Positions 31,611 to 58,787 of a stretch of DNA of 64,000 nt are shown here, piece after piece. The stretch is from Spirochaetales bacterium (GTDB taxonomy: Bacteria; Spirochaetota; Spirochaetia; JABEVK01). The position numbers were made by a program, and so were the translations under genes. The notes beneath the pieces were generated by a model. It made no database searches. It was given only the letters and a program-made list of their open reading frames with translations, and was not told the DNA's origin. Numbering within the stretch: the first letter of the stretch is position 1; each line of letters starts with the position of its first letter. The DNA is taken from assembly GCA_037142615.1 (NCBI GenBank), contig JBAXAI010000001.1:332471-396470 (forward strand), in the 5' to 3' direction.

Positions 31611-31636
31611 GGAAGACCTCGTTCTCGTTTTGGGCT

Positions 31637-32329
31637 TTACTCGGAACCTAGCAGAATTATACGGTCATGTGCAAGTTTTGTCCAATTGGACTCAGGGTAC
31701 TTCTCAAGCAACGCCTTGTAGGCGGCCAGAGCGTCGGCTGTTTTCAACTGAAGCTCCAGGAGGTGGCCCTTGGTAAAGTACACCTGGGGCGCAAGCACCT
31801 GATTGATGGAGTACGTTTTCAGAAAGCCATCCAATAACGCCAACGCAGCAACGAGGTCGCCCGCTTCTTCCTGACAAACCGAAGCATTGACCATGCCGAT
31901 GGGAGCCAAGTAACTTTGAGGGTCTTTTTCTGAAATTGCAGCATAGACCTTGGAAGCCTCCGACCACTTCTTCTCTTCAGCGAGGAAGTTGCCGTGAAGG
32001 AACAACGCCTTGAGCAGACCGTAGGACACGGGGGCGTTCCTTTCCACGGCCGACAGTTCATCCTCGAGAGCCCTTCCCAGGGTTTCTTTCTTGGTTAGGT
32101 CACTTTCGGACTGCCAAGAAACAAAGTCGTCCTGGCTCTTTTCAATTCGGGACGCGTAGTCCTTCTTCGTCGAGGCGTCGATCTGTGACCAGATGGCCAA
32201 ACCCACAAGCACCACAATAATGACCGCCACGATTCCAATCAGCACCGTCCGGTATTTCTGGAGGAAGTTGCTCAAGCCGTGCTTCAATTGGGTTCGTAGC
32301 GGGATCACTTCCTTACTCTTGTCCGACAT
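31637..32329 (-). CDS. Single-pass membrane-anchored TPR-like protein (YfgM-like)
   Basis: TM helix VLIGIVAVIIVVLVGLAIW followed by a helical repeat domain. Start overlaps the stop of the sigma-54 activator gene. Confidence 0.5.
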   Translation of the reverse strand: MSDKSKEVIPLRTQLKHGLSNFLQKYRTVLIGIVAVIIVVLVGLAIWSQIDASTKKDYASRIEKSQDDFVSWQSESDLTKKETLGRALEDELSAVERNAPVSYGLLKALFLHGNFLAEEKKWSEASKVYAAISEKDPQSYLAPIGMVNASVCQEEAGDLVAALALLDGFLKTYSINQVLAPQVYFTKGHLLELQLKTADALAAYKALLEKYPESNWTKLAHDRIILLGSE

Positions 32330-33848
32330 CTTGTTCTCCTTTGTCGCGAATATCTAGCTGCAATTCTTTCATGAGTTTGGACAGGTATGTCCTTTGAATT
32401 CCAAGTTCACGGGCGGCCTTCGTCTGATTTCCGCCACAGTCACGAAGCGTCTTGTTGATCAGTCTGGTTTTATAGTCCAGTACAGAACTTTTGAGGTCAG
32501 CACCGTGGTGGGTGGACGACTCCTGGGTCAGGGGAAGCCCCCAGTCCTGTGCTGTGATCAAACTGTTTTCACAGACCAAGACGGCCCTCTCGACGACGTT
32601 TTTCAGTTCACGGACATTGCCAGGCCAAGGATAGGCAATCAATACCTCGAGGGCCCCGGACTCCCATCCCCGAACCGACCTGCCATGTTGCACGCTGTAG
32701 TGTTTAACAAAGAGGCCCGCAAGAAGTTCTATGTCAACTAGACGTTCTCGAAGGGGGGGCAACGAAACAGGGAGAACATGAAGTCGATAGTACAGGTCCT
32801 GACGGAATGCTCCGTCCTTCATCGCTCTTTCAAGTGGTTGATTGGTAGCCGCAACGACTCTCACGTCGGCAAAAAGTGAAACCGTTGATCCGACAGGCTC
32901 AAACACACGCGACTGGAGTACGCGAAGTAGCTTCGCTTGCAAGAGTGGCGTTAGGGTTGCAATTTCGTCGAGAAACAAGGTTCCACCGTCAGCCAGCTCA
33001 AAGCGGCCTTTTTTGTCCGTGACTGCGTCTGTGAAGGACCCTTTGACGTGGCCAAAGAGCTCGCTCTCGAGAAGGCTCTCGGGTAGGGCCGCACAGTTCA
33101 CCTTGATAAGGGGTCCCGAAGCGCGTGAACTGCCTTCATGAAGCATCTCTGCGATTCGTTCTTTGCCGGTACCGTTTTCTCCTAGAATAAGCACCGTCGA
33201 GTCCGTGGTGGCATACTTGCGGGTCAACGCGAGGACCTCGTTCATCTTTGGGTCACGGGTAACAAAGGCTTCCCCTCCGCTGTGTCCCTCCAGCGCAACA
33301 CTGAGCTTTGTCAGTTCATCTTTCATCAGCTTGACTGACTGGGCGTTGTGTATCGCCATTCCTGCCTGGTTGGCAAACAGCTCCACCCAAGTCATGTCCT
33401 CGGCAGAAAAGTCCTGTCCGTTGCGCTTGTTGATAAGCTCAAGTACGCCAACACACTCACCCAGAACCCTTAGGGGGACTGCAAGAATGTTTTGAGTTGG
33501 GTAGCCGATATCACGGGAAATCTGGGCCGCAAACCGCCGGTCCTTGGCAACGTCGGGAACGTGCAGTGGAACGTTGTGTTTGGCGACCCAACCGGCTATC
33601 CCCTCACCGTTCTTGAGAACGAAGGACTTGACCTCAGTGCCTTTAGGGCCCAAAGCCACGACGAACTCCAAGTTCGAGGTCACCTTGTTGAGCATCAGCA
33701 GGCTCGCCGACTCGCCCGAAGTCAACTCCATGGCAGAATCAAGAATCTCCTCGAACAACCCGTTAAGATCAAAAGAGCGGGAGTTGAGTTGATTGTTGAT
33801 TTCCAGAAAGACATCCAGCTTCTGGGGGTCGACAGGAGAGTGAAACAT
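32313..33848 (-). CDS. Sigma-54-dependent transcriptional activator (bEBP) with N-terminal GAF domain and C-terminal Fis-type HTH
   Basis: The GAF region is about residues 30-170. AAA+ core has Walker A GENGTGKE, the sigma-54 contact loop ESELFGHVKGSFTDA (a GSFTDA variant of GAFTGA) and an arginine finger. C-terminal HTH is NQTKAARELGIQRTYLSKLMK. Confidence 0.85.
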   Translation of the reverse strand: MFHSPVDPQKLDVFLEINNQLNSRSFDLNGLFEEILDSAMELTSGESASLLMLNKVTSNLEFVVALGPKGTEVKSFVLKNGEGIAGWVAKHNVPLHVPDVAKDRRFAAQISRDIGYPTQNILAVPLRVLGECVGVLELINKRNGQDFSAEDMTWVELFANQAGMAIHNAQSVKLMKDELTKLSVALEGHSGGEAFVTRDPKMNEVLALTRKYATTDSTVLILGENGTGKERIAEMLHEGSSRASGPLIKVNCAALPESLLESELFGHVKGSFTDAVTDKKGRFELADGGTLFLDEIATLTPLLQAKLLRVLQSRVFEPVGSTVSLFADVRVVAATNQPLERAMKDGAFRQDLYYRLHVLPVSLPPLRERLVDIELLAGLFVKHYSVQHGRSVRGWESGALEVLIAYPWPGNVRELKNVVERAVLVCENSLITAQDWGLPLTQESSTHHGADLKSSVLDYKTRLINKTLRDCGGNQTKAARELGIQRTYLSKLMKELQLDIRDKGEQDVGQE

Positions 33849-33871: not shown

Positions 33872-36226
33872 TTACTTCTTGAAAAGATCGCCCAGACGGA
33901 AACTGGAATGGTCGTCATCCTTCTGGATGTACTTCGAAATCTCTTCCTTCTGCTGCTGCTTGACGAAATCCTTCAGAGAAAGAGACAGCTTCTGACGCTC
34001 AACAGAGACTTCCATCACCAGGACTTTCAGTTTATCGCCTACGGTCAACGACTTCATGAAGTCATCGGCTGTCTGGTCACGGGTGTCACAGAGGTTCGAC
34101 TTGGGAATCAACCCCTCGATGTTGCCCAAGACACGCAAGAACACGCCAAACTCCGTCTTGCTGACAATGCTTCCCTCAATCGGTGTGCCGCGGGGATAGG
34201 ACTTTCGGAGACTCTCCCATGGGTCATCACCGACCTGCTTGACTCCGAGTCGAATGCGCCGAGCTTCGGTATCGACACTCAGCACCTTCACTTCAACCAT
34301 TTGCCCGTCCTTGAGTTCGCTGGTCGCGTTCTTGGACTTCTTGACCCAGGAGAGATCATCCACGTGAAGGAAGCCATCCACGCCCTCTTCCAAGGTCACG
34401 AAAGCGCCGACTGGAGTCACTTTCTTCACCGGAAGCGTAAGCACCTTTCCGACCGGGAACTTGACGGCGGCTTCGTCCCATGGATTGGCCGAAACCTGCT
34501 TGAGCCCCAGAGAAATACGAGTCTGTTCCATGTCGTAGGCAAGGATTTTCGTTTGAACAATGTCGCCGGGCTTCAGGACTTCCTTGGGGTGTGAAATCCG
34601 CTTGACCCAGGACATTTCAGAAATGTGCACAAGACCCTCGACGCCTTCTTCGATCTCGATGAAGGCACCGAAATCGGCCAATTTGGTGACCTTTCCGGTG
34701 ACCACGTCTCCGACTTTGAACTTCTTCTCAAAGAGGACCCAAGGGTTGACTCCGAGGGCCTTGAGGCTGAGGTTAATCTTCTTTTCGGTGGGATCGAGCT
34801 TGACGACCTTGAGCTTGATCTTGTCACCCTTCTGGACAAAATCCTTTGGTCGCGTCACGTGCCCCCAACTCATGTCATTGAGGTGCAAGAGGCCGTCAAA
34901 GCCTCCAAGATCCACAAAAGCACCGAACGAGGTGAAAGACTTGACTTCCCCTTCGACCACGTCGCCCTCTTTCGTCTTCTGGAAAAACTCGGATCTCTTG
35001 ACGTCTGTTTCGCGAAGCAACAAATCCCGTCGATTCAAAACGATGTTGGCAGTCTTTTCCCAGACAAGCTTCTCGACCAGAAACGAACCGACCTTTCCAA
35101 GCAGTTCCTCCGGAACTTCGACCCGCACCGAGTCGGCCTTAGACAAGGGAACGAAAGCTCGATACGTGTGACCGAGATCAACCTCGTACCCACCCTTCAC
35201 CACTTTTGTAAACTTTCCGGTAAGCGGCGTTTTCTTCTCATAGGCGTCGTTGAGTTGTTCCCGGAAAGAAATTGCGTCGGCTTTTTCCTTGCTGATTTCA
35301 ATACTGCCCTTGCTGGATTCCTTTCGTTCAAGCACGACCTTGACGCGGTCGCCGACTTGAGGAGGAGTCTGAAACTCCGTAAGGGGAATCACTCCGTCGG
35401 ACTTGTAACCAATTCCGATGCTGACGGAGTCAGACGAGACGGAAATGACCGTCCCTTCTACAAGGCTGCCTTCCTGGAGGTTTTCGAGATTCTTAAGGTA
35501 TTCTTCCTGAAGAATGGTCTGGTTGTTGTCGGTTTCTGCCATGGCTTGCAAAAAACTCCTGGATTGGGGGCTGGATGCGAGAACGATGTCGGCCACTCTG
35601 GCACAAACAGCAGCAATGGTCAAGTCAGAGCAGTCTAGGAAATGAACTCCAGGCATCACCACCAAGGGACCATGTTTCTTGTTCCGGTCGATCGAGTCGC
35701 GCTCGCGAATCGCGTCCAGGACTCTCTCATAGGCAACGTCCTCAGGACGCTCCTCGAAGCGTCGGCGGGCACGGACCTCGGGGGTTGCGTCAAGAAAGAG
35801 CCTGACGTCGGCCTCGGGGAACACGACGCTGGTGATATCTCGGCCCTCGCAAACTAAACGGTGCTTTTTGCCCAGACTCCGAAAAATCGCGTTGAACTGA
35901 CTGCGGACTTCGGGCACTTCTGACACTTGGGCCACCCACACGTCAACTTCAACCGAGTGAAGTTCCGAACCCAGCGGAACGCCATCGACCACGACGGCCC
36001 CATCGAGGAACTCCCAATGCAACGAGGCAGAAAAGGGAACCAAGACCTCGGGCAACCCCAGTTCTGTCGGAAGTAGTCCGGCGCTGAGTGCGCGATAGGT
36101 CAACGCGCGATAGAAACGACCGGTGTTGAGCACCAGACAGCCAAAAGAAGTGGCAAGGTGCCTGGCGATTGTGCTTTTTCCGACTCCGGCAGGACCATCA
36201 ATGGCGATGACCATGCGACTCCCCAC
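33872..36226 (-). CDS. cmk-rpsA: Bifunctional cytidylate kinase / 30S ribosomal protein S1 fusion
   Basis: N-terminus IAIDGPAGVGKSTIARHLA... is cytidylate kinase (P-loop plus CMP-binding region, about 220 aa), followed by multiple S1 RNA-binding repeats (GxV...GAFV...G..GLLH). Single 784-aa ORF. Confidence 0.85.
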   Translation of the reverse strand: MGSRMVIAIDGPAGVGKSTIARHLATSFGCLVLNTGRFYRALTYRALSAGLLPTELGLPEVLVPFSASLHWEFLDGAVVVDGVPLGSELHSVEVDVWVAQVSEVPEVRSQFNAIFRSLGKKHRLVCEGRDITSVVFPEADVRLFLDATPEVRARRRFEERPEDVAYERVLDAIRERDSIDRNKKHGPLVVMPGVHFLDCSDLTIAAVCARVADIVLASSPQSRSFLQAMAETDNNQTILQEEYLKNLENLQEGSLVEGTVISVSSDSVSIGIGYKSDGVIPLTEFQTPPQVGDRVKVVLERKESSKGSIEISKEKADAISFREQLNDAYEKKTPLTGKFTKVVKGGYEVDLGHTYRAFVPLSKADSVRVEVPEELLGKVGSFLVEKLVWEKTANIVLNRRDLLLRETDVKRSEFFQKTKEGDVVEGEVKSFTSFGAFVDLGGFDGLLHLNDMSWGHVTRPKDFVQKGDKIKLKVVKLDPTEKKINLSLKALGVNPWVLFEKKFKVGDVVTGKVTKLADFGAFIEIEEGVEGLVHISEMSWVKRISHPKEVLKPGDIVQTKILAYDMEQTRISLGLKQVSANPWDEAAVKFPVGKVLTLPVKKVTPVGAFVTLEEGVDGFLHVDDLSWVKKSKNATSELKDGQMVEVKVLSVDTEARRIRLGVKQVGDDPWESLRKSYPRGTPIEGSIVSKTEFGVFLRVLGNIEGLIPKSNLCDTRDQTADDFMKSLTVGDKLKVLVMEVSVERQKLSLSLKDFVKQQQKEEISKYIQKDDDHSSFRLGDLFKK

Positions 36227-38709: not shown

Positions 38710-39930
38710 CTAGAAAAGTTCCGAATCCTCGGCCGTCGCGGGCGCCACAGGGACTACGGTAACCTTCGCGGCCTTGGTCTTCGGAGGCTCCAGGCCTGCC
38801 CCGGCTACCAGTGCCGCTGCGGCCAGCGCGTCGGCCGCGATGCGGTTGTTCACCGTCCCCAGGGGCTGGGAACCCGGAATGTCCCGATCCGGGAAAATCA
38901 GTTTGCGGAGCTTCTCTTCCAGGGTCTTGCTCAGTGCGACGTTTTTCTGGAGGAAGTCGCGCGCATTCTCGCGACCCTGCCCGATCCGTTCTTCACCGAA
39001 AGAGAACCAGGAACCGCTTTTTTGGACCAATTCAAACTTGAGCGCGCAGTCAAGAAGACTGCCGTAGTAGGAGATTCCCTGGCCAAACAGAATTTCAACC
39101 TCGGCTTTCCGGAAGGGAGGTGCAACCTTGTTTTTGACAACCTTGACCCGAACCAAGTTTCCAATGGCCTCATCCTGGCCCTTGTTGATGGTTTCAACCT
39201 TGCGAACGTCAAGGCGGACCGAAGCATAGAACTTGAGAGCGTTCCCTCCCGTGGTCGTTTCGGGATTGCCGAACATGACCCCAATCTTCATTCGGATTTG
39301 ATTGATGAAGATAAGGACGGCCCCCGACTTGGAAATAGTGCCCGTCAATTTCCGCAGGGCCTGACTCATCAATCGAGCCTGCAGACCGACGTGGGAGTCC
39401 CCCATTTCACCGTCAATTTCCGCTTGCGGTGTGAGGGCCGCGACAGAGTCTACAACGATGATATCAACGCCGCCGGAACGGACCAGCGACTCGGTGATTT
39501 CAAGGGCCTGCTCCCCGGTGTCGGGCTGACTGACCCACAGTTCCTCAATGTTCACGCCGAGGTTCTTGGCGTAGCCGGGATCAAGAGCATGTTCAGCGTC
39601 GATAAAGGCTGCCACCCCTCCGTTCTTTTGCGCCTGAGCGATGGCGTGCAAGGCCAACGTCGTTTTTCCAGACGACTCCGGCCCAAAGATTTCGATGATT
39701 CGACCCTTGGGGTAACCACCGATCCCGAGCGCCTCGTCAATGAGAATAGACCCCGAAGGGATGACTTCCAGCCCCTGCCCTATGGGTCCGTCACCCATTC
39801 GGATCAGCGAGCCCTTGCCAAACTGTTTCTCGATCTGGAGTCTAGCGGCGTCGAGCGCCTTGGACTTCTCTTCTTGATTGCCGGTACGCGAGGCTGTCAA
39901 AATGGGCGTTGTTTCTTTTTTGCTGGACAT
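38710..39930 (-). CDS. recA: Recombinase RecA
   Basis: [23 protein letters not shown]...[20 protein letters not shown], then the L1/L2 loops and a long Ala/Pro-rich C-terminal tail. Confidence 0.95.
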
Positions 39931-40032
39931 GGTCAGGTCTCCTTGCCCTTCCAGACGGAAGGGTACGGCGTCTTGCTTGAGACGTTGGCAAAGAATCTAC
40001 TCGGAATCCGGAGAATTGACAAGGAAACGGTA

Positions 40033-41136
40033 CTACGGGGATCGATAACCGACGACATGGATTCCCCGTGATTCGACGCTCCAGTGGCTACCCTCTACCT
40101 TCACCTGACCCAGAACGTCGACGACTTGGGAGTTCTTCAGAAGCGCTGCAAACCCGAGGTGGACGGGAACAACACCTTCGACGACTTGTCCGTCCTGGTA
40201 ACCCACTAACAGATCCAGGGTAATGGCGTCCGTTCCGCTCATCAGGTTGGAAACGACGCCCTTCCACTGCACGGTGCAACCCTCGTAGAGTTCCGGAAAG
40301 GCCTGAACGTCCCGAAAGTCGGCCGAAACTTCGGGTCGTGCGAAGTCAGGGACGTGGAGAAACGTCAGCAGCGTCCTGACCCGTTCTTTGGTGGCCGCAG
40401 GGGCATTTGACAAAAGAATCCGGTTGATCTCAAGCCGACAAAGCGAATCTTGGTAGTCTTGGAAGTACTTTTGGAGCTTTGTGAGGTGTTCGCGAAGCTC
40501 GTCTGCAGTCAGCGACACCCGGAAGGCCCCGGAATCCAGTAAAGGGGCCTCGGAAATGCTAGTGGAACTGAGCGCAAGGGAACCTTCGCGAACGCTGCCC
40601 ACAGGCACAGGCAGCCAACTGACACCCCACCAGATTCCCAGCGCCACACAGGGAATCAAGACGAGCACTCCGGTTACCAAGGGAATCCAACGCGGAAGTG
40701 CCACACTGCCTTTCCGTTTGGCTGCCCGGGGCAAGAGTGGATTGGTATCCAGAACCAACCTGCCTCCGGTCTCGGGCCCGCTGAGATACTCCCGCAGGCG
40801 CTCAAGGGCTTTTCGAGCGGGTCGGCACCCGGGGTTCTCATCCAGGACTTCCAGCGCTACCTTTACAGCCCCCGGATAGTCTTTGTTTCGGGCATTCACG
40901 GCGATGAGGGCCAAGAGGACTTGCTGGCGGTCGTCAGGTTCCAGCTGAAGTGCTCGCTCCAGATAGGTTTGCCCCCCCTTCCAGTCCCCGGCTCTCAGGC
41001 AGCAAAGGCCCAGAACCCGGTAAAAATCAGGATTGTTGCGGTTGCTAAGGATCTGAGGCTCAAGGAAGGAAATAGCCTCAGGAAAGCGTCCTCGCCGGTA
41101 GAGTTGCCAGGCCTGATCGAGGCGCGGATCGTCCAT
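40033..41136 (-). CDS. TPR-repeat protein with internal TM segment, hypothetical
   Basis: N-terminal TPR-like repeats (YRVLGLCCLRAGDWKGGQTYLERALQLEPDD), a TM helix LVTGVLVLIPCVALGIWWGV, and a C-terminal domain of unknown function. Confidence 0.5.
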   Translation of the reverse strand: MDDPRLDQAWQLYRRGRFPEAISFLEPQILSNRNNPDFYRVLGLCCLRAGDWKGGQTYLERALQLEPDDRQQVLLALIAVNARNKDYPGAVKVALEVLDENPGCRPARKALERLREYLSGPETGGRLVLDTNPLLPRAAKRKGSVALPRWIPLVTGVLVLIPCVALGIWWGVSWLPVPVGSVREGSLALSSTSISEAPLLDSGAFRVSLTADELREHLTKLQKYFQDYQDSLCRLEINRILLSNAPAATKERVRTLLTFLHVPDFARPEVSADFRDVQAFPELYEGCTVQWKGVVSNLMSGTDAITLDLLVGYQDGQVVEGVVPVHLGFAALLKNSQVVDVLGQVKVEGSHWSVESRGIHVVGYRSP

Positions 41137-41141
41137 GGACC

Positions 41142-42209
41142 TCAGGGCTGCACAGCCGCTGCCGCCGGTGTTGTCAGGCTGGACTTGTGGGACTCCAACT
41201 GCTCGAGAATCGCCTTGAAGAGTTTAAGGTCCTCGTCGGTCACCTTGGTCGCATCGACCAGTTTGGCGTTGATCTGAGTCATCAGGTTCTCAAGGCTTTG
41301 GAGGTCTTGCTTGACGAGTGAGGCACCGCCCCCTTCCTGCGTTCGACTTTCTTGCAGCAGATCGCTCAGAACGTTGGCGGTTCCAACCTTTGCGCCCGCG
41401 AAAGTGATCGCCGAGCGGTTCCCGAACATGAGCACGATGTCGCGGCTTGCTCCGGGCGCCAGGTCCTGCGCATCATAGTACTGGGCGACAGCAGAATCGT
41501 TGTAGCTGTACGGCAATTGATTGAAATCGCGCCCTTGGCGGAAGGCCATTTCCCAACTTGCATCGTCCAGTCGTTTCCAGTTGGCAAACACCAGCCTCGA
41601 AGGTGTCGTGGCCCCCTTGCCCAGCATCATCAACAACCCGATCTTCTCGTCCGTGGAAGAAGGACTAACCCACCAGTCCGGCAAGTTCCCTTCAAGCTTG
41701 CTTTCCGAGTTCACCGTTTCGCCGCCAGAAAGCTTGAAATGGTCCTTCTTCTCGCCCAGATTTGTGTCGATTCCAACGCGTACGGCAGGTCTCAACGTCT
41801 GCGTATCGGAGAGATTCGTCAGCGAGAGCGTTTCTTTGACTCCGTCGGCCACCGAAGAGGCGGCAGACGTAAGGAACTCAAAGGTCTGAGTCACCTTCAA
41901 AGTCTTTCCGGTCCACACGATTTTTCCCCCGACGGCGGTTGTTTCGGCGACGGGTACGTACGTGGAGTCTTCTCCGAGCACCGAGACCTTGTCTCCGAGC
42001 TGAATCTTGATTTTGGAAGTCGCCGGGTCGTCCGACGAATAAAGCGCAACAGGTACGGGATTGGCGATGTCGTCGGTGTAGATAACAGTCATGCGGCCAT
42101 TCTTGTCGCCCACATTCAGTTTGATCTTGCCTCGCTGAAGCTCAAAGCCGGTGGAAACGCCCGAAAATAGCGCGAGGGAAACAAGTGCAAAGACAACTTT
42201 ATTTCGCAT
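41142..42209 (-). CDS. Secreted hypothetical protein (355 aa)
   Basis: Signal peptide MRNKVVFALVSLALFSGVSTG. Beta-rich, Asp/Ser/Thr-rich sequence with no recognisable family. Overlaps both neighbours. Confidence 0.45.
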   Translation of the reverse strand: MRNKVVFALVSLALFSGVSTGFELQRGKIKLNVGDKNGRMTVIYTDDIANPVPVALYSSDDPATSKIKIQLGDKVSVLGEDSTYVPVAETTAVGGKIVWTGKTLKVTQTFEFLTSAASSVADGVKETLSLTNLSDTQTLRPAVRVGIDTNLGEKKDHFKLSGGETVNSESKLEGNLPDWWVSPSSTDEKIGLLMMLGKGATTPSRLVFANWKRLDDASWEMAFRQGRDFNQLPYSYNDSAVAQYYDAQDLAPGASRDIVLMFGNRSAITFAGAKVGTANVLSDLLQESRTQEGGGASLVKQDLQSLENLMTQINAKLVDATKVTDEDLKLFKAILEQLESHKSSLTTPAAAAVQP

Positions 42210-43107
42210 TTTGATCCTTCCAAGTCAGATAGAAGGACTTCAGGTCCAGCGCCCGGGACTTGAGCTCCAGAAGGGCAATGGTCTTGCTTTGGTCTGCCGC
42301 CTCGGTTACGACCCTCTCGGCACCCCCGGCCATCTGCACCTTGAGCGCAGCGATCTGCGCATCCTTCTGCTTGATCGTTTCTTCCAGGGTCGTCGTTCGG
42401 GCCCCCGTGTCGGTTGCCTGCAACTCGAGCAACTTCTTTTGGTAGGTCGCCAGCGACTGCTGGTAGGCTTTTTCACGCCGCTGAAACTCTTCTGCCGAGT
42501 TCATGGATTCGGTGTGGGACCACTGGAGAAGTTTCATCAGCTCATCCTCCCGTTGCTTCAGACTGATAACCGCCAGTCGGTACCGACTGGCTTCCAGCTT
42601 GAAGCTCGAGGGATAGCCCTGAACGATCCGGTTGTAGAAAACCGCGGCATCCTGATAGCGACCTAGGGACCAAGCCGACTCACCCATCCAGAACAGGGCG
42701 TTTGCCACCAGTTCACCGGTAGGCGAGATTTCCAGAAACTGTCCGAAGGCCTGCAAGGCCTTTTCAAAGTCATTCTGGGAGTAGGCGATGCGTCCTTTGA
42801 CGTAGGCCGCTTCCGTTTGACCAACGTCGCGGGGGAAGGTCTGGATGTAGTAGTCGAGATTGAGCGTCGCGTTGCCCGTATCGAGCAACGCCAAGTAGGT
42901 CTTGGACAACCAGAGGTAAGAGTCAGGGACGGCCCGAGTGGCCGGGTCTGCGACGACTTGCTGAAACAGACTAAGAGCCGACAGGTACTCGCCCCGCGAA
43001 TAGTAGTCCCTTCCCTGCTCGAGGAGCTTGAGCGAAGTGGAGTCGGTCTGGGCTTGAGCCAAGCTGGAACAGGCCAACAAGAGTGCTAGGAGAACGCTAC
43101 GGATCAT
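42199..43107 (-). CDS. Secreted TPR-repeat protein with C-terminal coiled coil
   Basis: Signal peptide MIRSVLLALLLACSSLAQAQ. TPR repeats (YLWLSKTYLALLDTGNA, AAYVKGRIAYSQNDFEKALQAFGQFL, ALFWMGESAWSLGRYQDAAVFYNRIV) and a coiled-coil tail. Confidence 0.5.
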   Translation of the reverse strand: MIRSVLLALLLACSSLAQAQTDSTSLKLLEQGRDYYSRGEYLSALSLFQQVVADPATRAVPDSYLWLSKTYLALLDTGNATLNLDYYIQTFPRDVGQTEAAYVKGRIAYSQNDFEKALQAFGQFLEISPTGELVANALFWMGESAWSLGRYQDAAVFYNRIVQGYPSSFKLEASRYRLAVISLKQREDELMKLLQWSHTESMNSAEEFQRREKAYQQSLATYQKKLLELQATDTGARTTTLEETIKQKDAQIAALKVQMAGGAERVVTEAADQSKTIALLELKSRALDLKSFYLTWKDQNAK

Positions 43108-43110
43108 TAT

Positions 43111-43779
43111 TCACCGCCTCAAAGACTTCAGTTGCCGAAGATACCCGGCCTGGTCGGGGGAATCGAAGAAGGCCGAACCCGTTACAAGAATATCGGCACC
43201 GGCCTTCACAATCTCAACGGCCGTCGTGGCGTTTACTCCGCCGTCGATGGAGATGCGAAACTTGTAGCCGCCTTGACTGCGGAGTTCTGCCAGACGAGCC
43301 AAACGCCCACTCGTCTCAGGAAGGTACTTCTGCCCACCAAAACCAGGGTTGATTCCCATGACAAGCACGAGATCCAAGTAGGGAAGCAGCGCGCTCAAGT
43401 GTTCTATCGGGGTCGAGGGAACCAGCGAGATACCCGCAAGCTTGCCGGCATCATGGATTCGTTGGACAAGTCGGTGATGATGTACGGCCGCTTCCCAATG
43501 AAACGTGACCGCGTCGGCGCCCGCCTGGATGTAGTTCTCGAGCAGGGCCTCGGGATGTTCCACCATCAGGTGGACGTCAAAGAACAAATCACTATGCTTG
43601 CGCATCGCCTGGATGAGTGGCGGACCAAAGGTCAGGTTGGGGACAAAATGGCCATCCATCACATCGAGGTGGATCCAAGACGCTCCAGCCGACTTGACCC
43701 GGGCCAACTCCTGAGCCAGGAACGCGAAGTCGGCCGACAGGAGCGAAGGCGCGGGGATAATCGAGTTTAGTTGTTCCAT
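43111..43779 (-). CDS. rpe: Ribulose-phosphate 3-epimerase
   Basis: IIPAPSLLSADFAFLAQEL...HLDVMDGHFVPNLTFGPP...MGINPGFGGQKY. Start set to MEQLNS (ATG at 43777-43779) because the longer ORF has a non-homologous N-terminal extension. Confidence 0.85.
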   Translation of the reverse strand: MEQLNSIIPAPSLLSADFAFLAQELARVKSAGASWIHLDVMDGHFVPNLTFGPPLIQAMRKHSDLFFDVHLMVEHPEALLENYIQAGADAVTFHWEAAVHHHRLVQRIHDAGKLAGISLVPSTPIEHLSALLPYLDLVLVMGINPGFGGQKYLPETSGRLARLAELRSQGGYKFRISIDGGVNATTAVEIVKAGADILVTGSAFFDSPDQAGYLRQLKSLRR

Positions 43780-43841: not shown

Positions 43842-43869
43842 TTGACTTAAATCCCGTCTTGGGTATAAT
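43842..43869 (+). promoter_or_regulatory. Candidate sigma-70 promoter for the hypothetical gene - greA operon
   Basis: TTGACT - 16 nt - TATAAT, 15 nt upstream of the ATG at 43885, in the divergent intergenic region with rpe. Confidence 0.45.
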
Positions 43870-43884: not shown

Positions 43885-44865
43885 ATGAAATCCGTTGCCG
43901 AAGATACCATCGCCAGTTCCGGTCAAAACCCGCTTTCGCGCCTCGACGACATCCTCCGGATTTCGTGCCTCAGCCTCCGATCAGGGAACTTTTCGGAAGC
44001 TGAAACAGTGGCTGAACAGGGTTTGGCCTTGGATTTCGAGGAGCCACGGGTCCTAGCCACGTTGAAGTGTGCAGTATTTTGGAAGGATCGGGCCACGCGT
44101 GTTGGCCTGATGACGGTTCCCGAGCAACGCGCCGACTATTTGTTGCGGGAATTGACAGGGTTTGAACGTCGATTCGTACCTCATCTGGATTGCCTGCTGG
44201 AAGAAGGGGTCGATGCAATCCGGCAATTCGTCTATCAACAGGCTGCCAGGTCCTTTCTCGAGCAGATCCCGTTCGAGGACGAGTCCAGAAAACCAGTGCT
44301 CTTGGTTAAGGCTGCCCGGGCCTTCAAGTGCAATGGTGACTTCGACAAGGCAATCGCCCACTTGGAAGAGGCACTTCAACTCCAAAAAGATGATTCTGCA
44401 TCCTTGGCTGAGATGGGTGACTGTTTCGAGATGACCAACGAGACCCGGAAGGCCAAGCTCTTCTTCCGGGAAGCCTTCTATTTGGGTGCCCAGGCCATTG
44501 ACTTGGAGTGTTTGCGTTCTGGAATGATCACAGAAGTCGTCGCCTCTCTGTCGAGTTGGGGCTACGGTCCCGAGGAACTGAAAGAATGGCTTCCGGTGCA
44601 TGCCGTTATCAGGGGTGCCTTCAACGTCAAGCGGGAACTCAAACCCTTGGAACTTGGGCACCTGAAGCAGGCTATCAACACCCTGAAGAACGAAATCCAG
44701 CTGAAGTCTCCCCAGCGTTCTTTGCTGGTACCACGGTTGATCAACAAGTATTTCTGGCTGATCGACCACTACTTGAGCGTCAAGGAAGAGCGGAACAAGA
44801 TTGAAGATGTTCTGCTCAATATCAAACTGCTTGACCCTCAAATCCATGAGCTGTACACCCACTAA
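43885..44865 (+). CDS. Hypothetical helical (TPR-like) protein
   Basis: 326-aa ORF, coding-like, with no recognisable catalytic motif. Immediately upstream of greA. Confidence 0.45.
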   Translation: MKSVAEDTIASSGQNPLSRLDDILRISCLSLRSGNFSEAETVAEQGLALDFEEPRVLATLKCAVFWKDRATRVGLMTVPEQRADYLLRELTGFERRFVPHLDCLLEEGVDAIRQFVYQQAARSFLEQIPFEDESRKPVLLVKAARAFKCNGDFDKAIAHLEEALQLQKDDSASLAEMGDCFEMTNETRKAKLFFREAFYLGAQAIDLECLRSGMITEVVASLSSWGYGPEELKEWLPVHAVIRGAFNVKRELKPLELGHLKQAINTLKNEIQLKSPQRSLLVPRLINKYFWLIDHYLSVKEERNKIEDVLLNIKLLDPQIHELYTH

Positions 44866-44880
44866 CCCAGGAGAAGAAGG

Positions 44881-47565
44881 ATGTCCGAAGAATTGATCAC
44901 GAAAATTGAGCAGATGCTGCATGAGGAAAAGTGGACGCGGACAGCGATCGGCGCTTACACGGTCACCCTCATCAAGGAACTGGACGCTCTCCTGACCCAA
45001 GTTGTGGATGCCAGCGCTCAGGAGGCAGTGCAGGAACTCTGCGAAGCCCACCTTGGAGAATCGAAAAACAGCATCGTCGCCCTCTATTTGTCGGGGATGC
45101 TGGCGTTGGAAAGGCAGATGCTGGACGATGCCCATCTCGTTAAGCTTGTGAACCTTTTCGCCCAGAACCTGAAGTGGCCCTTGGTAGAGCATATCTGCGA
45201 TCAGATTCTGAAGTACGGCGAGAACAAGTTTGCTCTGCGCAGCCTGATCGACTGCTACAAGAATGAGAGCAATGAGACCAGCCTCCACGATATTGAAGAA
45301 CGGCTGATCAAGGTCGATATTGAGGAAGCGGACATTGTTTTCAGTCTGGCTCAGCGCTTTGAGAAGGAAAAGAATCAGGCAAAGGCCGTGGAATACTACA
45401 AGAAAGGTATCCATCGCTTCATTTTCAAAAAGAACTTCAACCGCATCCGGGAAATCTGGCTCAAGCTGATTGAGTTTTGTCCGGACGAGACTGAGTACTT
45501 TGCTCAGGTAGAGCAGAAAGTCGCAAAGCTACTGGGAGCCGAGAAGGCCTGCCAACTGCTTGAGGACTTGTATCCACTGTTCCTTCAGAACAAGAAATAT
45601 GACGACGCCATTCAAGCCCAGTTACGCATCAGTCTTTACGAGCCAAAATCGCCCCAAGTCCGCCGTGAGATTATCTCGTGCCTCAAGTTGAAGTTTGCCG
45701 CCAACTCAAAAACCGAAGAATACCTGAGACTTTCGAACATCGGTGACAGTTGGAAGAGCGTGGCCGATGCTCTCGAGGATTTCAAGAAGCAAATGGCCTA
45801 CGAAAAGGGCAATTTTGTTTACCACAAGGCTTGGGGTGTTGGTCGCATCCGCGAGGTGCGAGACCAAGACTACCTGATCGACTTTGAAACCCAACGGAAC
45901 CAGAGTATGGGTCAGAAGATGGCAGTCGAAGCGCTGACGAGTCTGGAACGGGATGACATCCGCGTTCTGGCCGCGACTACAAAGCGCGAGGAACTTGCCA
46001 AGAAGATCAAGACCAACCCGGACTGGGCGCTCAAGATCTTGATTCGGAGTTTCGGCAACAAGGCCGACATGAAAGTCATCAAGGCTGTACTGGTTCCCAA
46101 GGTGCTGGAAGAACGTGAATGGACGACTTGGAGCACCAACGCCCGTAACCTCATCAAGGAGAGTACGGACTACGCGCTGAGCCCTGACAAACAAGATGAG
46201 TTCATGGTGCGAACGCAGCCGATTACCAAAGAAGAGAAAATCTACAATAAGTTCAAAGCTGAAAAGGACTTCTTCAAACGTGTTGCGGTCCTGGAAGAGT
46301 TCCTAGTCCATGGAAACAAGGAATCAGACTACTTTGGCGAACTGTTTTCCAGTTTCAGCAGCTACCTGAAATCCAACAAGGTCAATGAAGAAGTTATCGC
46401 TTCTTTTCTGCTCATCCAGGAACACTCGAAGGCCTTTCCCTTCATCAATCCGGGTACCAACCGCACGTTCATCGACTACTTCAACCAGATCGAGGAGCTT
46501 GAGCCCCTCTACCGGTCGCTGAACAATGCGGAACTGCGCGGCATTTTCCTGCATCAGGTCAAGTTAACTGTCCCCAATTGGGATCAGGTGTTTGTAAGGC
46601 TGTTTCCTATCACCCCAACCATGAGGATCATCGAAAACCTCAAAGGCGCAGGCAAGTCGGATGTGGTGCACAAGTTGTTCGAAGATCTCATGGAAAAGCA
46701 CAAGGATCTCAAAGAGCCCTTCTTTCATGCCGCCAAGATGGCCCTCGAAGGCAAGATTCCTTTCGGTGGCCGACTGACTGAGGAAAAGCTTATGATCACG
46801 CTTGTCCACGACTTGGACCTCACGTTCCGCGACATTCAGAACAAGAAAGACGTCACGGAAAACAAAAGGATCAACAAGCTCATCTTGGCGTTCCTCTTCA
46901 AGGACAAGGTGCTCGAAAAGTATCTGGAAGTCGCCGCCGAAGAGTCCGTTCGCCGCCTGTTCTCGCTGATTCAGGACGTACGCGACTTGAATGCGAACCT
47001 CAAGCAGGACGTGAAGGCCACCATTGCAGTCCGGTTTCCGAACTTGGTCGCCGCGGGTGAACCGCTTCCGATGGCAGTGTCCTCCCGCAAGGGCATCATG
47101 ACCACGCTCAAGATGTTCAACTCGAAGACCAAGGAACGTCAGAACATCGTCGACATCGAAGTTCCGAAGAATTCCAAGGAAATCGGTGATGCCATGGCCT
47201 TGGGCGACCTTAAGGAAAATGCCGAGTACCATGCTGCGAAAGAGCGTCAGACCATGCTGAGCGCGACGCTTACAACGCTCAACAAGGAACTCGAATCAGC
47301 AACGGTCATCGAACCTTCCGAAGTTGATCTCAGCAAAGTTTCTTTCGGGACAACGGTGACGCTGGTCAGCAATCTTGATAAGAAAACGGAAACCTACACA
47401 ATCCTGGGACCCTGGGAGTCGGATCCCGCGCATAACATTATCTCGTACCTGTCACCATTTGGCGATAAGCTGCTCGGGAGCAAGGTGGGTGAAGCCCTGA
47501 AGTTCACGATCAACGAGCGAAAGTGTGACTACGTGGTGAAGTCGGTGCTGGCAGCTAAGTTCTAG
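44881..47565 (+). CDS. greA: Transcription elongation factor GreA, long (spirochete-type) form with about 730-aa N-terminal extension
   Basis: The C-terminal about 160 aa carry the GreA signature ALGDLKENAEYHAAKERQ plus an FKBP-like C-domain (VSFGTTVTL...YTILGPWESD). The N-terminal region has no recognised family. Confidence 0.75.
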   Translation: MSEELITKIEQMLHEEKWTRTAIGAYTVTLIKELDALLTQVVDASAQEAVQELCEAHLGESKNSIVALYLSGMLALERQMLDDAHLVKLVNLFAQNLKWPLVEHICDQILKYGENKFALRSLIDCYKNESNETSLHDIEERLIKVDIEEADIVFSLAQRFEKEKNQAKAVEYYKKGIHRFIFKKNFNRIREIWLKLIEFCPDETEYFAQVEQKVAKLLGAEKACQLLEDLYPLFLQNKKYDDAIQAQLRISLYEPKSPQVRREIISCLKLKFAANSKTEEYLRLSNIGDSWKSVADALEDFKKQMAYEKGNFVYHKAWGVGRIREVRDQDYLIDFETQRNQSMGQKMAVEALTSLERDDIRVLAATTKREELAKKIKTNPDWALKILIRSFGNKADMKVIKAVLVPKVLEEREWTTWSTNARNLIKESTDYALSPDKQDEFMVRTQPITKEEKIYNKFKAEKDFFKRVAVLEEFLVHGNKESDYFGELFSSFSSYLKSNKVNEEVIASFLLIQEHSKAFPFINPGTNRTFIDYFNQIEELEPLYRSLNNAELRGIFLHQVKLTVPNWDQVFVRLFPITPTMRIIENLKGAGKSDVVHKLFEDLMEKHKDLKEPFFHAAKMALEGKIPFGGRLTEEKLMITLVHDLDLTFRDIQNKKDVTENKRINKLILAFLFKDKVLEKYLEVAAEESVRRLFSLIQDVRDLNANLKQDVKATIAVRFPNLVAAGEPLPMAVSSRKGIMTTLKMFNSKTKERQNIVDIEVPKNSKEIGDAMALGDLKENAEYHAAKERQTMLSATLTTLNKELESATVIEPSEVDLSKVSFGTTVTLVSNLDKKTETYTILGPWESDPAHNIISYLSPFGDKLLGSKVGEALKFTINERKCDYVVKSVLAAKF

Positions 47566-47607: not shown

Positions 47608-48927
47608 TCAAGGGGTCGCTGTCCACGTTTTGAGGATGGCAGTCGCTTGAGCCTTGATGTTCACGTCGGGGTCCTTGACAGAAAGGTTTCGGACCACCGG
47701 CTCGTATTCCCGAAAATTGCCCGCGGCTATGGCCCTGAGAGCCAGAGAGCGGGATGTCACCGAGTCGTTGAGCAGAAGCACTCCAAAGAGCGTTCGGTAA
47801 GAATCGCGGGTGGGAAGCAAGGCTCCGGCGATCACCGGGGCCAATGCGCCGTTCTTAGCCTTGTTTTCTTCGTCCAACACCTTCTGAAGGGCTTCGCTTA
47901 CCCCGGACCACTTTTTGTCGATGGCCTGGTTGAGCGCTTCTCGCCAAACCGAAAAATCCGTCTTTCGGTCCGACAGGAGGGCCAAGACCGGCGTCGCGCC
48001 ACCATCGTAAGCAGCTAGGGCCCTCAGGCAGGCGGTACGAACCCGCGCTTCTGGGTCTTTCTTGACCCGGAAGAGAAGAATTTCCTGGAGTTCGGGAATC
48101 TTGAGGGTCGCAGCCGCGTCGGCTCCAGCCAAGCGCACATTGACCTGGGCGTCACGGAGGGCCTTGGTGAGGTCCGTGGCAAGTTCGAAGTGTCCGGGAA
48201 ACGAGCCAAGAGTGCCGACTGCTGCGGCCCTCAGGTCGCTGTTGTCGGAATCCAAAGCCGTTTGAACCAAGTTCCAGGCCCGCGCATCCCCAATTTTGCC
48301 CAAAGCAGCCAAGATGGTTCCCTGAAGCAGGGGCTCGTTGTCACTTTCCTCGTATTCTTTGAGAAGCGGGTCTACCGCGTCCCTGGCCTTCATTTCCCCT
48401 AGGGCCCAGATGATATCTGGCTTAAAGTTCACGTCGGTCTCTGCATCTTTGTAGATCTTGAGTATTTCGCCGACCCGCCCGGTCGCTTCGATCTTTGCCA
48501 ACGCACGAATGCTAGCCAGAGCCAAAGTCTTGTTCTTGTCCGTCATCAACTGGACGAAGACCGCTTCCGAGGCTTTCGACTTGATGCCCGTCAGGTAGGA
48601 AACCGCGGTCAGAAGAAAGCTGTTGGACTTCTTCTCTGGTTGGGAAAGCTCCTTGATGGCATCGTTTTCAAGATGATTGTCCTTGAGGTCGAGGAAATAG
48701 CCGAGTAGTAGTTCCTTGAGATCCGTGTTTCTGGCGGAGCGGAAGATCCCTGCCAATTCGTCCAGAAAGTCCCTGTTCTTTTCCTGCTGGAGGGTTCTGA
48801 CGAGGTCGATAATTTCGGTTTCGATGCCGAACTTGAGCGTCTGCAGTCTCTCTTCTTTCGGGGTCAAATCTGTTGCAAAGAGCGGTACCGCCAACAGAAC
48901 AGCAAGAAGCATCCGACTACGCTTCAT
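47608..48927 (-). CDS. Secreted HEAT-repeat protein
   Basis: Signal peptide MKRSRMLLAVLLAVPLFA. Many HEAT/PBS-lyase-like repeats (DxxVRxxAxxALG...). Start placed at the second ATG to limit overlap with murJ. Confidence 0.5.
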   Translation of the reverse strand: MKRSRMLLAVLLAVPLFATDLTPKEERLQTLKFGIETEIIDLVRTLQQEKNRDFLDELAGIFRSARNTDLKELLLGYFLDLKDNHLENDAIKELSQPEKKSNSFLLTAVSYLTGIKSKASEAVFVQLMTDKNKTLALASIRALAKIEATGRVGEILKIYKDAETDVNFKPDIIWALGEMKARDAVDPLLKEYEESDNEPLLQGTILAALGKIGDARAWNLVQTALDSDNSDLRAAAVGTLGSFPGHFELATDLTKALRDAQVNVRLAGADAAATLKIPELQEILLFRVKKDPEARVRTACLRALAAYDGGATPVLALLSDRKTDFSVWREALNQAIDKKWSGVSEALQKVLDEENKAKNGALAPVIAGALLPTRDSYRTLFGVLLLNDSVTSRSLALRAIAAGNFREYEPVVRNLSVKDPDVNIKAQATAILKTWTATP

Positions 48928-50566
48928 GGGAAACCTCCGGTGTTTCCAGCCGCGGACGAAAGAGCCGCCACGGCTGGATGCCAACTGCGAGCAGTGACAG
49001 AAATACGATTACTAAGGCGGAAAGTCCCTCGGCGACGAGAAGGCCCGCTGCAGGCCAAGTCAGGCCAGCGACCCACCATTTTCCGGTCGTACCAAGAGCA
49101 ACAAACCAAGCGAGAGTCACCGGCGTCAAGGCCAGCGCAACACGCAGCAGGAACCATCCCAACTCACCCAGTCGGCGCCAAGGCAAGGACTTCCAGGCCA
49201 AGACCAGCAAAGTCACAGCACCAACCAAGAAACCCGCGACGCTTCCCGCCGCAAGACCAAGGACGCCCAGCGGGGTCAACATCAAGGTCACTGAAACCAG
49301 GACGTCAGTGACGGCCCAGACAATGCTGACACGGAAAGGCGCCCGGAAGTCACCCTTTGCATAAAAGAAACGCTGGAGAAAATTGAAGACTCCAGACAAG
49401 AACAAGCCCCACGCCAACCACGAAAGAACGCGGGCGGCCAGTACGGTATTCTCGTAGGTGAAGGCACCCCGCTGAAGTGCCAAACCGATCAAGGGCTCAG
49501 CAAACAGAGAAAGAAGGAGGCCCGCTGGCAACAACAGGACCGCCTGGAGTTCGAGGCCCTGGACCATGGTCGCCGATGCGGCATCCCAATCTCGACCTGC
49601 CACCTGACGGCTCATCCGAGGGAAGTATACGGTGATCACCGAGGCCGACAGCACACCGGCCGGCAACTGCCAGAAGACGATGGCGTTGGCCAGTGACGAG
49701 ACACTGCCCTCGGGTAAGGTAGTCGCCAGAGTCATGGATATCTGCTGGTTCAGCAAAGAGATCCCGCTAATCATAAGTGCAGGACCCCATTTACGCAGGG
49801 TTTCTCGCATTTCCGGGATCCAGAAACGAAGCAGGGGTTTCGCAGAGTAACCAAGCCGCCGCAGGGGAAACCACTGAAGCAATACCGGAAGCAGTCCTCC
49901 AACAAGCACACCCGGAATCTGGGCATAGACATCCATCGTCGGCGCCCAGAGCAGGAGCGAGGCGATGACGGCAACCGAGAAGAGGATGGGACTGATTGCC
50001 GGAATCGCGAACTTCTGGTGAGTGTTTTCAACACCCATCATCACCGCGCTCCAACTGACGGGAATGAGAAACACAATGAACCAACGGAACAGATCGATGG
50101 CGAGCGCCTGCTTTTCGGATACTCCGCCAAAGGGCGCCAGCACGGCAATTACCGCAGGAGCAAAAACGATACCGGCGACCACCAGCGGAAGCAGCACAAC
50201 CAACTGGAGCATGAACAACGCCCGGACCAGCAGCCGTGCACGCGCCCCGGAAGCGTCAGCCTCAAGACTCCTGGAAAGAACCGGAATGAACGCTGTTGAT
50301 AAAGCCCCTTCGGCGACCAGTTTTCGCAGGTTCATGGGGATGGTAAAGACAGCGTTCAGCACATCCGCCTTCCACCCCTGACCAAAGAAGGCACTGACCA
50401 CAGCGCTTCTGGCAAAGCCAAGCAATCGGCTGGCAAAGGTGGCAACTCCGACAATGGCCGTATCAGACACGGGCGGCCTTCCTGCCAAAACGGTCAAGAA
50501 ACTGAACTTGAAAGGCCAAAAAACGGTCTTCTCGAATTGCCGCCCGGATTTGCCCCAAGAAGTCAT
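48917..50566 (-). CDS. murJ: Lipid II flippase MurJ (MviN family)
   Basis: N-terminal block ASRLLGFARSAVVSAFFGQG...NLRKLVAEGALSTAFIPVL and 12-14 TM segments. Start uncertain: the ATG at 50566 or the TTG at 50497 both overlap the tgt 3' end. Confidence 0.75.
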   Translation of the reverse strand: MTSWGKSGRQFEKTVFWPFKFSFLTVLAGRPPVSDTAIVGVATFASRLLGFARSAVVSAFFGQGWKADVLNAVFTIPMNLRKLVAEGALSTAFIPVLSRSLEADASGARARLLVRALFMLQLVVLLPLVVAGIVFAPAVIAVLAPFGGVSEKQALAIDLFRWFIVFLIPVSWSAVMMGVENTHQKFAIPAISPILFSVAVIASLLLWAPTMDVYAQIPGVLVGGLLPVLLQWFPLRRLGYSAKPLLRFWIPEMRETLRKWGPALMISGISLLNQQISMTLATTLPEGSVSSLANAIVFWQLPAGVLSASVITVYFPRMSRQVAGRDWDAASATMVQGLELQAVLLLPAGLLLSLFAEPLIGLALQRGAFTYENTVLAARVLSWLAWGLFLSGVFNFLQRFFYAKGDFRAPFRVSIVWAVTDVLVSVTLMLTPLGVLGLAAGSVAGFLVGAVTLLVLAWKSLPWRRLGELGWFLLRVALALTPVTLAWFVALGTTGKWWVAGLTWPAAGLLVAEGLSALVIVFLSLLAVGIQPWRLFRPRLETPEVSHEA

Positions 50567-51590: not shown

Positions 51591-51598
51591 GGAAGCTC

Positions 51599-56694: not shown

Positions 56695-56707
56695 GCTGAT
56701 TCCTTTT

Positions 56708-58777: not shown

Positions 58778-58787
58778 GGGTTTTCCT

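Follow-up and report, generated by a model that had tools for sequence, protein, structure and literature searches.

A conserved three-gene module beside rpe in Spirochaetia as a possible inner-membrane-anchored periplasmic scaffold

Introduction

Spirochetes have an unusual cell envelope, with periplasmic flagella, a fragile outer membrane and peptidoglycan that lies near the inner membrane, and to our knowledge many of the proteins that organise it are not known. Here we describe a three-gene module on the minus strand of a 64,000-nucleotide stretch of DNA from a Spirochaetales bacterium (lineage JABEVK01; assembly GCA_037142615.1, contig JBAXAI010000001.1, positions 332,471 to 396,470), hereafter called the window, to which all coordinates refer unless stated otherwise. 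The genes, named A, B and C here, encode a predicted secreted periplasmic tetratricopeptide repeat (TPR) protein of 302 amino acids (42199..43107), a predicted secreted protein of 355 amino acids from an uncurated family (41142..42209) and a predicted bitopic inner-membrane protein of 367 amino acids (40033..41136). We tentatively propose, with rather less than even confidence, that A-B-C forms a glycan-binding, Spirochaetia-specific scaffold that extends from an inner-membrane anchor into the periplasm.

Several described proteins resemble parts of this module. CpoB (YbgF) is a soluble periplasmic protein that combines an N-terminal, oligomerising coiled coil with a C-terminal TPR domain and is encoded with tol-pal. 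BamD (YfiO) has TPRs of the same class and is a lipoprotein without a long helical tail. Galactose mutarotase and aldose 1-epimerase carry a catalytic pair of histidines and a glutamate on a mutarotase-like supersandwich, and the periplasmic P1 domain of YidC is a supersandwich followed by helices. RodZ consists of a cytoplasmic helix-turn-helix domain, one transmembrane helix and a periplasmic beta domain. Finally, the flagellar collar proteins FlbB and FlcA-FlcE are spirochete-specific, periplasmic or associated with the inner membrane, rich in TPRs and encoded at sites scattered among housekeeping genes (PMC11750108; bioRxiv 10.64898/2026.05.29.728556).

Results

A, B and C form a tightly packed unit that is kept beside rpe

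The module was first noticed in the DNA sequence as three minus-strand open reading frames (ORFs) that appeared to overlap pairwise, and the ORF list places all three at the positions originally given. The overlap between A and B is real: direct reading of the DNA showed that the 11 nucleotides ATGCGAAATAA (42199..42209, minus strand) contain both the start codon of B and the stop codon of A. The second overlap, proposed at 41136-41142, does not exist. The TGA stop codon of B occupies 41144-41142 and the most upstream start available to C is the ATG at 41136, which leaves a spacer of 5 nucleotides between the two genes (ggtcc, 41137..41141, minus strand). Judged by the full-length homologues that each of them has, A, B and C are genuine genes and not chance ORFs.

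Synteny in relatives had been named in the original prediction as a check on the module. We examined 30 distinct related loci in all, 26 of which were mapped by tblastn; one of these came from an exact-protein look-up and 25, all from metagenome-assembled genomes (MAGs), from a pattern scan over species-representative genomes whose reach was set by the peptide patterns used. The order rpe-A-B-C was kept in every one of the 30 loci, at identities of C down to 27%, and rpe preceded A wherever a locus reached far enough. The mapped loci all showed the wider arrangement greA <- TPR326 <- rpe -> A -> B -> C, where TPR326 is a divergently encoded TPR protein of 326 amino acids, and C was often followed by dtd; this was also the arrangement around the most distant homologues of C (27-30% identity).

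The spacing within the module was similarly constant. B began between 14 nucleotides before and 3 nucleotides after the end of A (-14 to +3) in 23 of the 25 loci where this could be measured, and the distance from B to C was mostly 0-12 nucleotides, so that the description of A-B-C as a tightly packed unit was borne out. A few lineages have an enlarged spacer between B and C, of 68 nucleotides in loci L022, L025 and L026 (around 6975-7044 of the locus) and of 561 nucleotides in L016 (7098-7660), and thus tight coupling of C to B is not universal. The gap from rpe to A ranged from -4 to about 150 nucleotides and was 50-150 nucleotides in most other lineages, which leaves room for a promoter. 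We regard A-B-C as a coupled core and rpe as its constant neighbour, which may or may not share a transcript with it.

The module had also been described as wedged between rpe and recA. This is true of the window, where recA starts 102 nucleotides past C, but the conserved partner is rpe, often together with dtd on the far side, and not recA. The row recA-HPPK-scpA-scpB-rluB lay downstream in about half of the 26 mapped loci, recA was absent within reach in nine, and in the closed 3.2-Mb assembly behind locus L027 dtd, nth and prs stand between C and recA with rpe-A-B-C intact. More generally, the genes downstream of C vary, and in the loci examined outside Treponema pallidum none of them was flagellar or envelope-related. 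A functional link to recA was therefore rejected, since recA is not a constant neighbour and has a promoter-like site of its own.

Evolutionary rates are about 1.5-1.9 times higher for A, B and C than for rpe and greA, and faster evolution is typical for envelope proteins. We also compared rate covariation between the proteins. Partial correlations were 0.43-0.50 among A, B and C versus 0.19-0.48 with TPR326 and rpe; because the values with these two neighbours reach equally high, the mirror-tree test does not discriminate.

A is a predicted soluble periplasmic TPR protein with a helical tail

A begins with a signal peptide (about residues 1-19, with a cleavage site between AQA and Q), as had been noted at the outset, and this feature is kept across the family: signal-peptide-like N-termini were found in all 24 homologues analysed, none of which shares a conserved lipobox cysteine, and most of which have Ala-X-Ala sites and no cysteine. 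A string ending in cysteine (LLAC13) occurs only in the window protein and a few close relatives. Since it is not a conserved lipobox, members of the A family are most likely soluble periplasmic proteins.

The signal peptide is followed by TPRs of the CpoB/YbgF-BamD type (about residues 27-200), which had likewise been recognised from the start and which match Pfam TPR_16 at 2.6e-14, and then by a helical tail (about 200-302). Members of the family share a conserved motif, LMKLLQWSHTES...EEFQRREKAYQQ, and a strongly conserved helix directly after the TPRs, LLKLLQWSHEESL...EEYQRREK.YEQ. The tail had been called a coiled coil. A helical, partly heptad-patterned tail is plausible, with heptad-like stretches by a crude heptad count, conservation along the tail and clear leucine-zipper-like runs in other members.

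Comparison with curated models placed A near CpoB and BamD. It scored 70.1 bits (2.3e-19) against the YbgF/CpoB model TIGR02795, with a cutoff of 90.1, 36.3 bits against NF008068, with a cutoff of 383, and 50.8 bits (1.5e-13) against the BamD model TIGR03302, with a cutoff of 81.4. The Pfam YfiO model was matched at 9.6e-8 and 32.5 bits, above its cutoff of 25, and generic TPR models scored higher than YfiO. Searches against PDB sequences returned YbgF (2xev, 7e-8), CpoB (6g5s, 5e-7), BamD (3qky) and 9n2d, and the first three are the closest natural relatives of solved structure.

Like CpoB, its best natural match, A would thus be a soluble periplasmic protein with a YbgF-type TPR domain and a helical segment, but its domain order is reversed, with the TPRs first and the helical tail last, and it carries additional TPRs at the N-terminus as well as a QWSHEES motif particular to its family. 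Furthermore, A is found with rpe, B and C, both in the window and in the 30 related loci, rather than with tol-pal. The identification of A as CpoB therefore fails on score, domain order and gene context. BamD was rejected because a lipobox is not conserved in the 24 homologues; by score, A lies above the cutoff of Pfam YfiO and below that of TIGR03302. A also has the long tail that BamD lacks, and no bamA gene was found near the module in any locus.

B belongs to an uncurated family with a predicted supersandwich fold

B likewise carries the signal peptide originally attributed to it (about residues 1-20), which is present in 39 of 39 members of its family, without a conserved cysteine. The original prediction described B as an orphan in no recognised family. 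At the level of sequence this was confirmed: B matched nothing in Pfam or NCBIfam, none of 39 relatives matched Pfam, and phmmer and profile searches against PDB sequences gave nothing above coiled-coil noise. B does have many relatives. A word-index search found 53 full-length homologues, and an exhaustive hidden Markov model search yielded 1997 cluster representatives at E<=1e-3, with 339 of them at E<=1e-30 and roughly 860 between E 1e-10 and 1e-30, the best 150 matches all being full-length proteins of about 330-460 amino acids. The members that carry a name are all annotated 'hypothetical protein' and come from Spirochaetales, Spirochaetia or Treponema MAGs, and a search with a Treponema-biased profile together with cluster look-ups again returned only MAG entries of this kind. 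Homology searches thus place B in no characterised family, and by these searches B is a member of an uncurated family absent from Pfam, NCBIfam and the PDB.

Structure prediction and fold search, the follow-up that had been suggested for B, did give it a recognisable fold. The AlphaFold2 model, computed from an alignment of 20 sequences (pLDDT 79.5, pTM 0.72), shows a galactose-mutarotase-like beta-supersandwich (about residues 21-265) followed by a 70-residue helical hairpin (about 280-346). In Foldseek searches of the PDB, the model matched the N-terminal domains of GH94 cellobiose and cellodextrin phosphorylases and of GH65 and GH116 enzymes (GH, glycoside hydrolase family), the NDH subunit PnsB2, the mutarotase-like protein 3dcd and the P1 domain of YidC. 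These matches had a probability of 1.0, E values of 1e-7 to 1e-4, TMq scores of 0.35-0.46 and identities of 8-14%; for 3dcd, PnsB2 and the GH94 domains E lay between 1e-7 and 2e-5, and for 3dcd, TMq was 0.46 and TMt 0.53. The predicted fold of B therefore agrees with that of mutarotase-like supersandwich domains, to which no sequence relationship is detectable, and its succession of supersandwich and helices is that of YidC P1.

Among the 39 members, the invariant positions are D148, E153, F158, E169, S182, N210, W211, R213, P233, Y234, D238 and S239, and the polar and aromatic residues among them (D, E, E, N, W, R, Y and D) suggest a putative binding site. No invariant column holds a histidine and there is no match to Pfam Aldose_epim, so that B, although modelled with the right fold, was rejected as a galactose mutarotase or aldose 1-epimerase. 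It was also rejected as a GH94, GH65 or GH116 phosphorylase or hydrolase: the model contains no (alpha/alpha)6 or other catalytic domain, and the whole protein has only 355 amino acids. Unlike these enzymes and YidC, B stands alone, with neither a catalytic nor a membrane domain.

C is a predicted type II membrane protein with an OB-fold ectodomain

A word-index search found 107 full-length homologues of C. The protein matches Pfam TPR_19, TPR_14 and TPR_2, and its AlphaFold2 model (pLDDT 90.0) consists of three TPRs (residues 1-120), a linker with an invariant proline (P136), a transmembrane helix (about 150-174), a three-helix bundle (211-259) with the motif E-I-N-R-I-L-L-S-N-A and a five-stranded oligonucleotide/oligosaccharide-binding (OB) fold barrel (288-364). 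The original description of C, as TPRs with a single transmembrane helix, was therefore correct. In Foldseek searches the TPR part matched generic TPRs and the barrel the OB-folds of aspartyl-tRNA synthetase (AspRS) and RPA, and the whole chain gave a weak match to TTC5, a TPR and OB protein. Residues 180-367 had no Pfam or PDB sequence match. The OB-fold class commonly binds oligosaccharides or oligonucleotides.

All 34 homologues analysed have the single transmembrane helix and no N-terminal signal peptide. Summed over these proteins, lysines and arginines within 15 residues of the helix number 119 upstream versus 79 downstream. Large folded N-terminal domains are seldom translocated without a signal peptide. 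Given the lack of a signal peptide, the folded N-terminal domain of about 120 residues and the charge bias, C is likely to adopt an N-in, C-out (type II) topology, with the TPRs in the cytoplasm and the helical bundle and OB-fold in the periplasm. The original prediction had cast both TPR proteins as scaffolds in a periplasmic or envelope role, and this part stands for A only; the TPR domain of C is most likely cytoplasmic.

C resembles RodZ in overall architecture and logic. This is an analogy, with no relationship in sequence or fold and with TPRs in place of the helix-turn-helix domain.

Treponema pallidum retains C as TP0944

A full-length orthologue of C is encoded by T. pallidum as TP0944 (TPANIC_0944, WP_010882387; 390 amino acids). 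BLASTP of C against the TP0944 sequence, which we took from the supplementary proteome file of PMC10600179, gave 28% identity over 365 amino acids (E 5e-42). C is a full-length, collinear member of the TP0944 family: the layout of TPRs, transmembrane helix, helical region and OB-fold is the same, and the shared motifs EIN(R/K)LL-SNA and LLVGY...LEGIVPV are visible in the alignment. TP0944 is annotated as a hypothetical protein and has been detected in proteomics (supplements of PMC10600179 and PMC8525777); we did not find it in the main text of the literature searched.

The gene order in T. pallidum is rpe (TP0945), TP0944, fliS (TP0943) and two small hypothetical genes (supplements of PMC8525777 and PMC10600179), so that TP0944 adjoins rpe and is followed by fliS rather than standing after A and B. 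The distance from TP0944 to fliS is 48 bp in gene tables that do not give strand orientation. TP0942, the gene next after fliS, encodes a helical protein of 154 amino acids that resembles a flagellar chaperone. TP0017-greA-VWA, the counterpart of the TPR326-greA pair, and recA-scpA are kept elsewhere in the chromosome, apart from rpe-TP0944. We searched part of the T. pallidum proteome, in which some sequences were incomplete, for motifs of A (QWSH, WSHEE) and of B (ANWKR, PYSxND, NDSAV) and found nothing relevant to either, so that the absence of A and B is tentative. C, apparently present in this organism without A and B, would not strictly need them.

Flanking sequences and other features of the window

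The upstream neighbour rpe (ribulose-phosphate 3-epimerase; 43111..43779, minus strand) ends 3 nucleotides before A. Its Pfam match (Ribul_P_3_epim, 6.6e-71) begins at residue 59 of the 271-residue ORF and its homologues have 214-239 amino acids; the start is therefore probably the ATG at about 43779 (MEQLNS..., 222 amino acids) and not the listed TTG at 43926. A sequence scan of the minus strand from rpe to the stop codon of C found no terminator-like site. Inside the 3' end of rpe, a consensus scan picked out a weak sigma-70-like site, TTGAGA-17-GATATT (9/12; 43189..43217, minus strand), which could be a candidate internal promoter for A-B-C. A second such site, TTGTCA-17-TAGATT (39994..40022, minus strand), lies just past the stop codon of C, ahead of recA; it is the probable recA promoter and marks where the module ends downstream. 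Scans with Rfam models and for tRNAs gave no match within the module or in its surroundings. An anti-phage defence system was rejected on a negative PADLOC scan, in which the only match was a spurious one (0.0049) to a coiled-coil stretch.

Divergent from rpe-A-B-C lie the genes for TPR326, a cytoplasmic protein, and for a long spirochete GreA of 894 amino acids (43885-47565, plus strand). A strong promoter-like site (TTGACT-16-TATAAT, 43842-43869) precedes this pair, which all loci retain and which is the one detached from rpe in T. pallidum. Downstream of the module, RecA (38710-39930, minus strand; 406 amino acids) has an Ala/Pro-rich C-terminal extension of about 60 residues past RecA_C, which ends at residue 344.

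Further genes of the window lie at a distance from the module. MurJ, tgt and an LptF/LptG pair stand in a row at 48917-53919 (minus strand), and the LptF/LptG pair indicates that this spirochete has a lipopolysaccharide (LPS) export system. An RNase P RNA (21273-21650, plus strand) overlaps the 5' end of an ORF for a 332-residue TPR protein (21585-22583), whose true start is probably further downstream and which directly precedes an elongasome cluster of mreB-mreC-mreD-PBP2-rodA (21273-28190 with the RNA, plus strand). A signalling cluster at 28528-33848 (minus strand) encodes a 787-residue CHASE2-adenylate/guanylate cyclase, a 230-residue TPR_21 (YfgM-like) protein and a GAF-sigma54 activator, beside a 240-residue ORF with no Pfam match. 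A 784-residue fusion of cytidylate kinase and ribosomal protein S1 (33872-36226, minus strand) is of a kind also seen in other spirochetes; the GTG listed as its start possibly lies too far upstream. Three ORFs of 535, 836 and 1023 amino acids (53888-55495, minus; 56420-58930, plus; 60634-63705, plus) had no Pfam match at E<=1e-5, and a ribosomal S15 leader (Rfam RF00114, 47.6 bits; 59001-59111, minus strand) adjoins ribF/truB.

Discussion

The features described above can be joined in a model of an envelope scaffold, in which function is read from architecture. C would span the inner membrane as a type II protein, its cytoplasmic three-TPR domain docking a cytoplasmic partner and its ectodomain of helical bundle and OB-fold projecting into the periplasm. 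A, with its CpoB/BamD-type TPRs and helical tail, and B, a supersandwich like those that bind carbohydrate in glycoside hydrolases, extended by a helical hairpin, would both be soluble in the periplasm. Their overlapping genes would yield them in coupled amounts, and they would assemble at or close to C or with each other, possibly via their conserved helical segments or tails. The ligand of the supersandwich of B and of the OB-fold of C would be a glycan of the periplasm, with peptidoglycan the most plausible candidate, and the overall role of the module would be to organise or coordinate envelope layers, as CpoB and RodZ-type adaptors do.

Several lines of evidence are consistent with such a scaffold. 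The tight packing and the synteny of A-B-C are kept while the genes downstream vary. A and B have predicted secretion signals and C a predicted bitopic topology, the TPRs of A are nearest to those of periplasmic YbgF/CpoB and of BamD among natural proteins, the model of B points to carbohydrate-binding-type, non-catalytic domains and to YidC P1, and the modelled ectodomain of C ends in an OB-fold. The scans of the minus strand, with no terminator-like site from rpe to C and a promoter-like site before recA, suggest a unit with a defined end, and the faster evolution of A, B and C than of rpe and greA would fit envelope proteins.

Other observations weigh against it. We infer the formation of an A-B-C complex from architecture, and glycan binding from fold class, with modest TM-scores for B (0.35-0.46 over the whole chain); for the coiled coil of A the basis is a crude heptad count. 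The genes around the module (rpe, dtd, recA and greA) have housekeeping functions and provide no envelope context, rate covariation does not set the three proteins apart from TPR326 and rpe, and T. pallidum keeps C beside rpe, apparently without A and B on a motif-based search of a partial proteome. The original suggestion of a periplasmic assembly or anchoring machine keeps the standing of a reading from architecture, for a module without a characterised counterpart. Its building blocks (TPR scaffolds, supersandwich and OB-fold) are familiar, as is the idea of a TPR-scaffolded envelope complex; we found no surprising property, and A-B-C looks like an ordinary conserved operon.

A bolder version of the envelope scaffold, which we consider rather unlikely, is that A-B-C, centred on the new family of B and the TP0944 family, constitutes an unrecognised trans-envelope machine, either replacing Tol-Pal/CpoB-type coordination between wall and outer membrane or supplying missing membrane-anchored and peripheral pieces of the flagellar collar. 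The rival explanation that survives best, although it too is unlikely, is that the proteins belong to the periplasmic flagellar motor as accessory components, for example of a collar or stator scaffold in which C is embedded in the membrane and A and B are peripheral periplasmic pieces. The Borrelia collar is rich in TPR proteins such as FlcA and FlcE, and it retains large unassigned densities, including one predicted to be a transmembrane or lipidated protein (PMC11750108; bioRxiv 10.64898/2026.05.29.728556). Collar genes are moreover scattered among housekeeping and division and cell wall (dcw) genes (bioRxiv 10.64898/2026.05.29.728556), so that a non-flagellar neighbourhood does not exclude a flagellar role, and in T. 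pallidum the close neighbour of TP0944 is fliS, followed by two small hypothetical genes; this adjacency and the unassigned densities are the chief support for the flagellar reading. However, no flagellar gene stood beside the module in any of the 30 distinct loci outside T. pallidum, and T. pallidum has a collar, apparently without A and B (with the limits of the motif search given above). None of the three is a known collar protein: A scored 21.6 bits against the FlcA model (FlcA_CTERM, NF047371), where the cutoff is 300, which amounts to generic TPR similarity, and B and C had no match. The domain contents of the collar proteins also differ from those of A, B and C, FlcA being a protein of 900 amino acids, FlcD (BB0236) having a beta-propeller, which rules it out as the counterpart of C, and FlcE being a lipoprotein encoded in the dcw cluster (PMC11750108; bioRxiv 10.64898/2026.05.29.728556).

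A quite improbable alternative places B at the centre, as an enzyme or binder for a periplasmic or exported polysaccharide, for example in glucan or glycolipid processing or export, with A as TPR scaffold and C as membrane adaptor. The top structural matches of the B model are all carbohydrate-active proteins, and its invariant acidic and aromatic residues could suit a site for sugar. Many polysaccharide secretion systems (of the AlgK/PelB/BcsC type) come with TPR scaffolds, and T. pallidum has no LPS export system. The presence of LptF/LptG and MurJ in the window, together with the apparent lack of A and B in LPS-free T. pallidum, would fit this view, but the correlation comes from one reduced genome. 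The matched domains are non-catalytic N-terminal domains, B has neither an (alpha/alpha)6 or other catalytic domain nor the invariant histidine that mutarotase chemistry needs, and no glycosyltransferase, synthase, porin or transporter gene was found beside the module in any locus.

It is still less probable that C is a transmembrane signalling or sequestration device, whose OB-fold would sense a periplasmic cue with A and B and whose TPRs would hold or release a cytoplasmic factor. The architecture of C does parallel that of anti-sigma factors and one-pass sensors, C persists alone in T. pallidum, and the genes for the long GreA and for another conserved cytoplasmic TPR protein adjoin the module in divergent orientation; yet C lacks any recognisable anti-sigma or output domain, neither a regulator nor a sigma factor was linked to the module in any locus, and in T. 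pallidum rpe and C lie apart from the TPR326-greA pair. Just as improbable is that A, B and C are mere neighbours with unrelated functions in an ancient gene order, for although the whole region (greA, TPR326, rpe, dtd, recA, HPPK, scpAB) is unusually syntenic, rate covariation is not specific to the module and T. pallidum has C apart from A and B, the overlap or gap of at most 3 nucleotides between A and B and the few nucleotides between B and C persist at 27-35% identity with the flanks reshuffled, and A, B and C are all predicted to be targeted to the envelope, unlike every neighbour.

A three-gene module that is intact across Spirochaetia at 27-35% identity is linked through C to TP0944, a hypothetical protein that T. 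pallidum expresses. Under the envelope scaffold that we tentatively favour, B and the ectodomain of C would be a candidate glycan-binding pair, as suggested by their models, and the module a candidate for unassigned envelope or motor densities. If A-B-C is only a lineage-specific scaffold, the advance is incremental, and it still gives B and TP0944 an annotation at the level of fold; if it is instead a trans-envelope machine, TP0944 would gain a defined role in the envelope of the syphilis spirochete.

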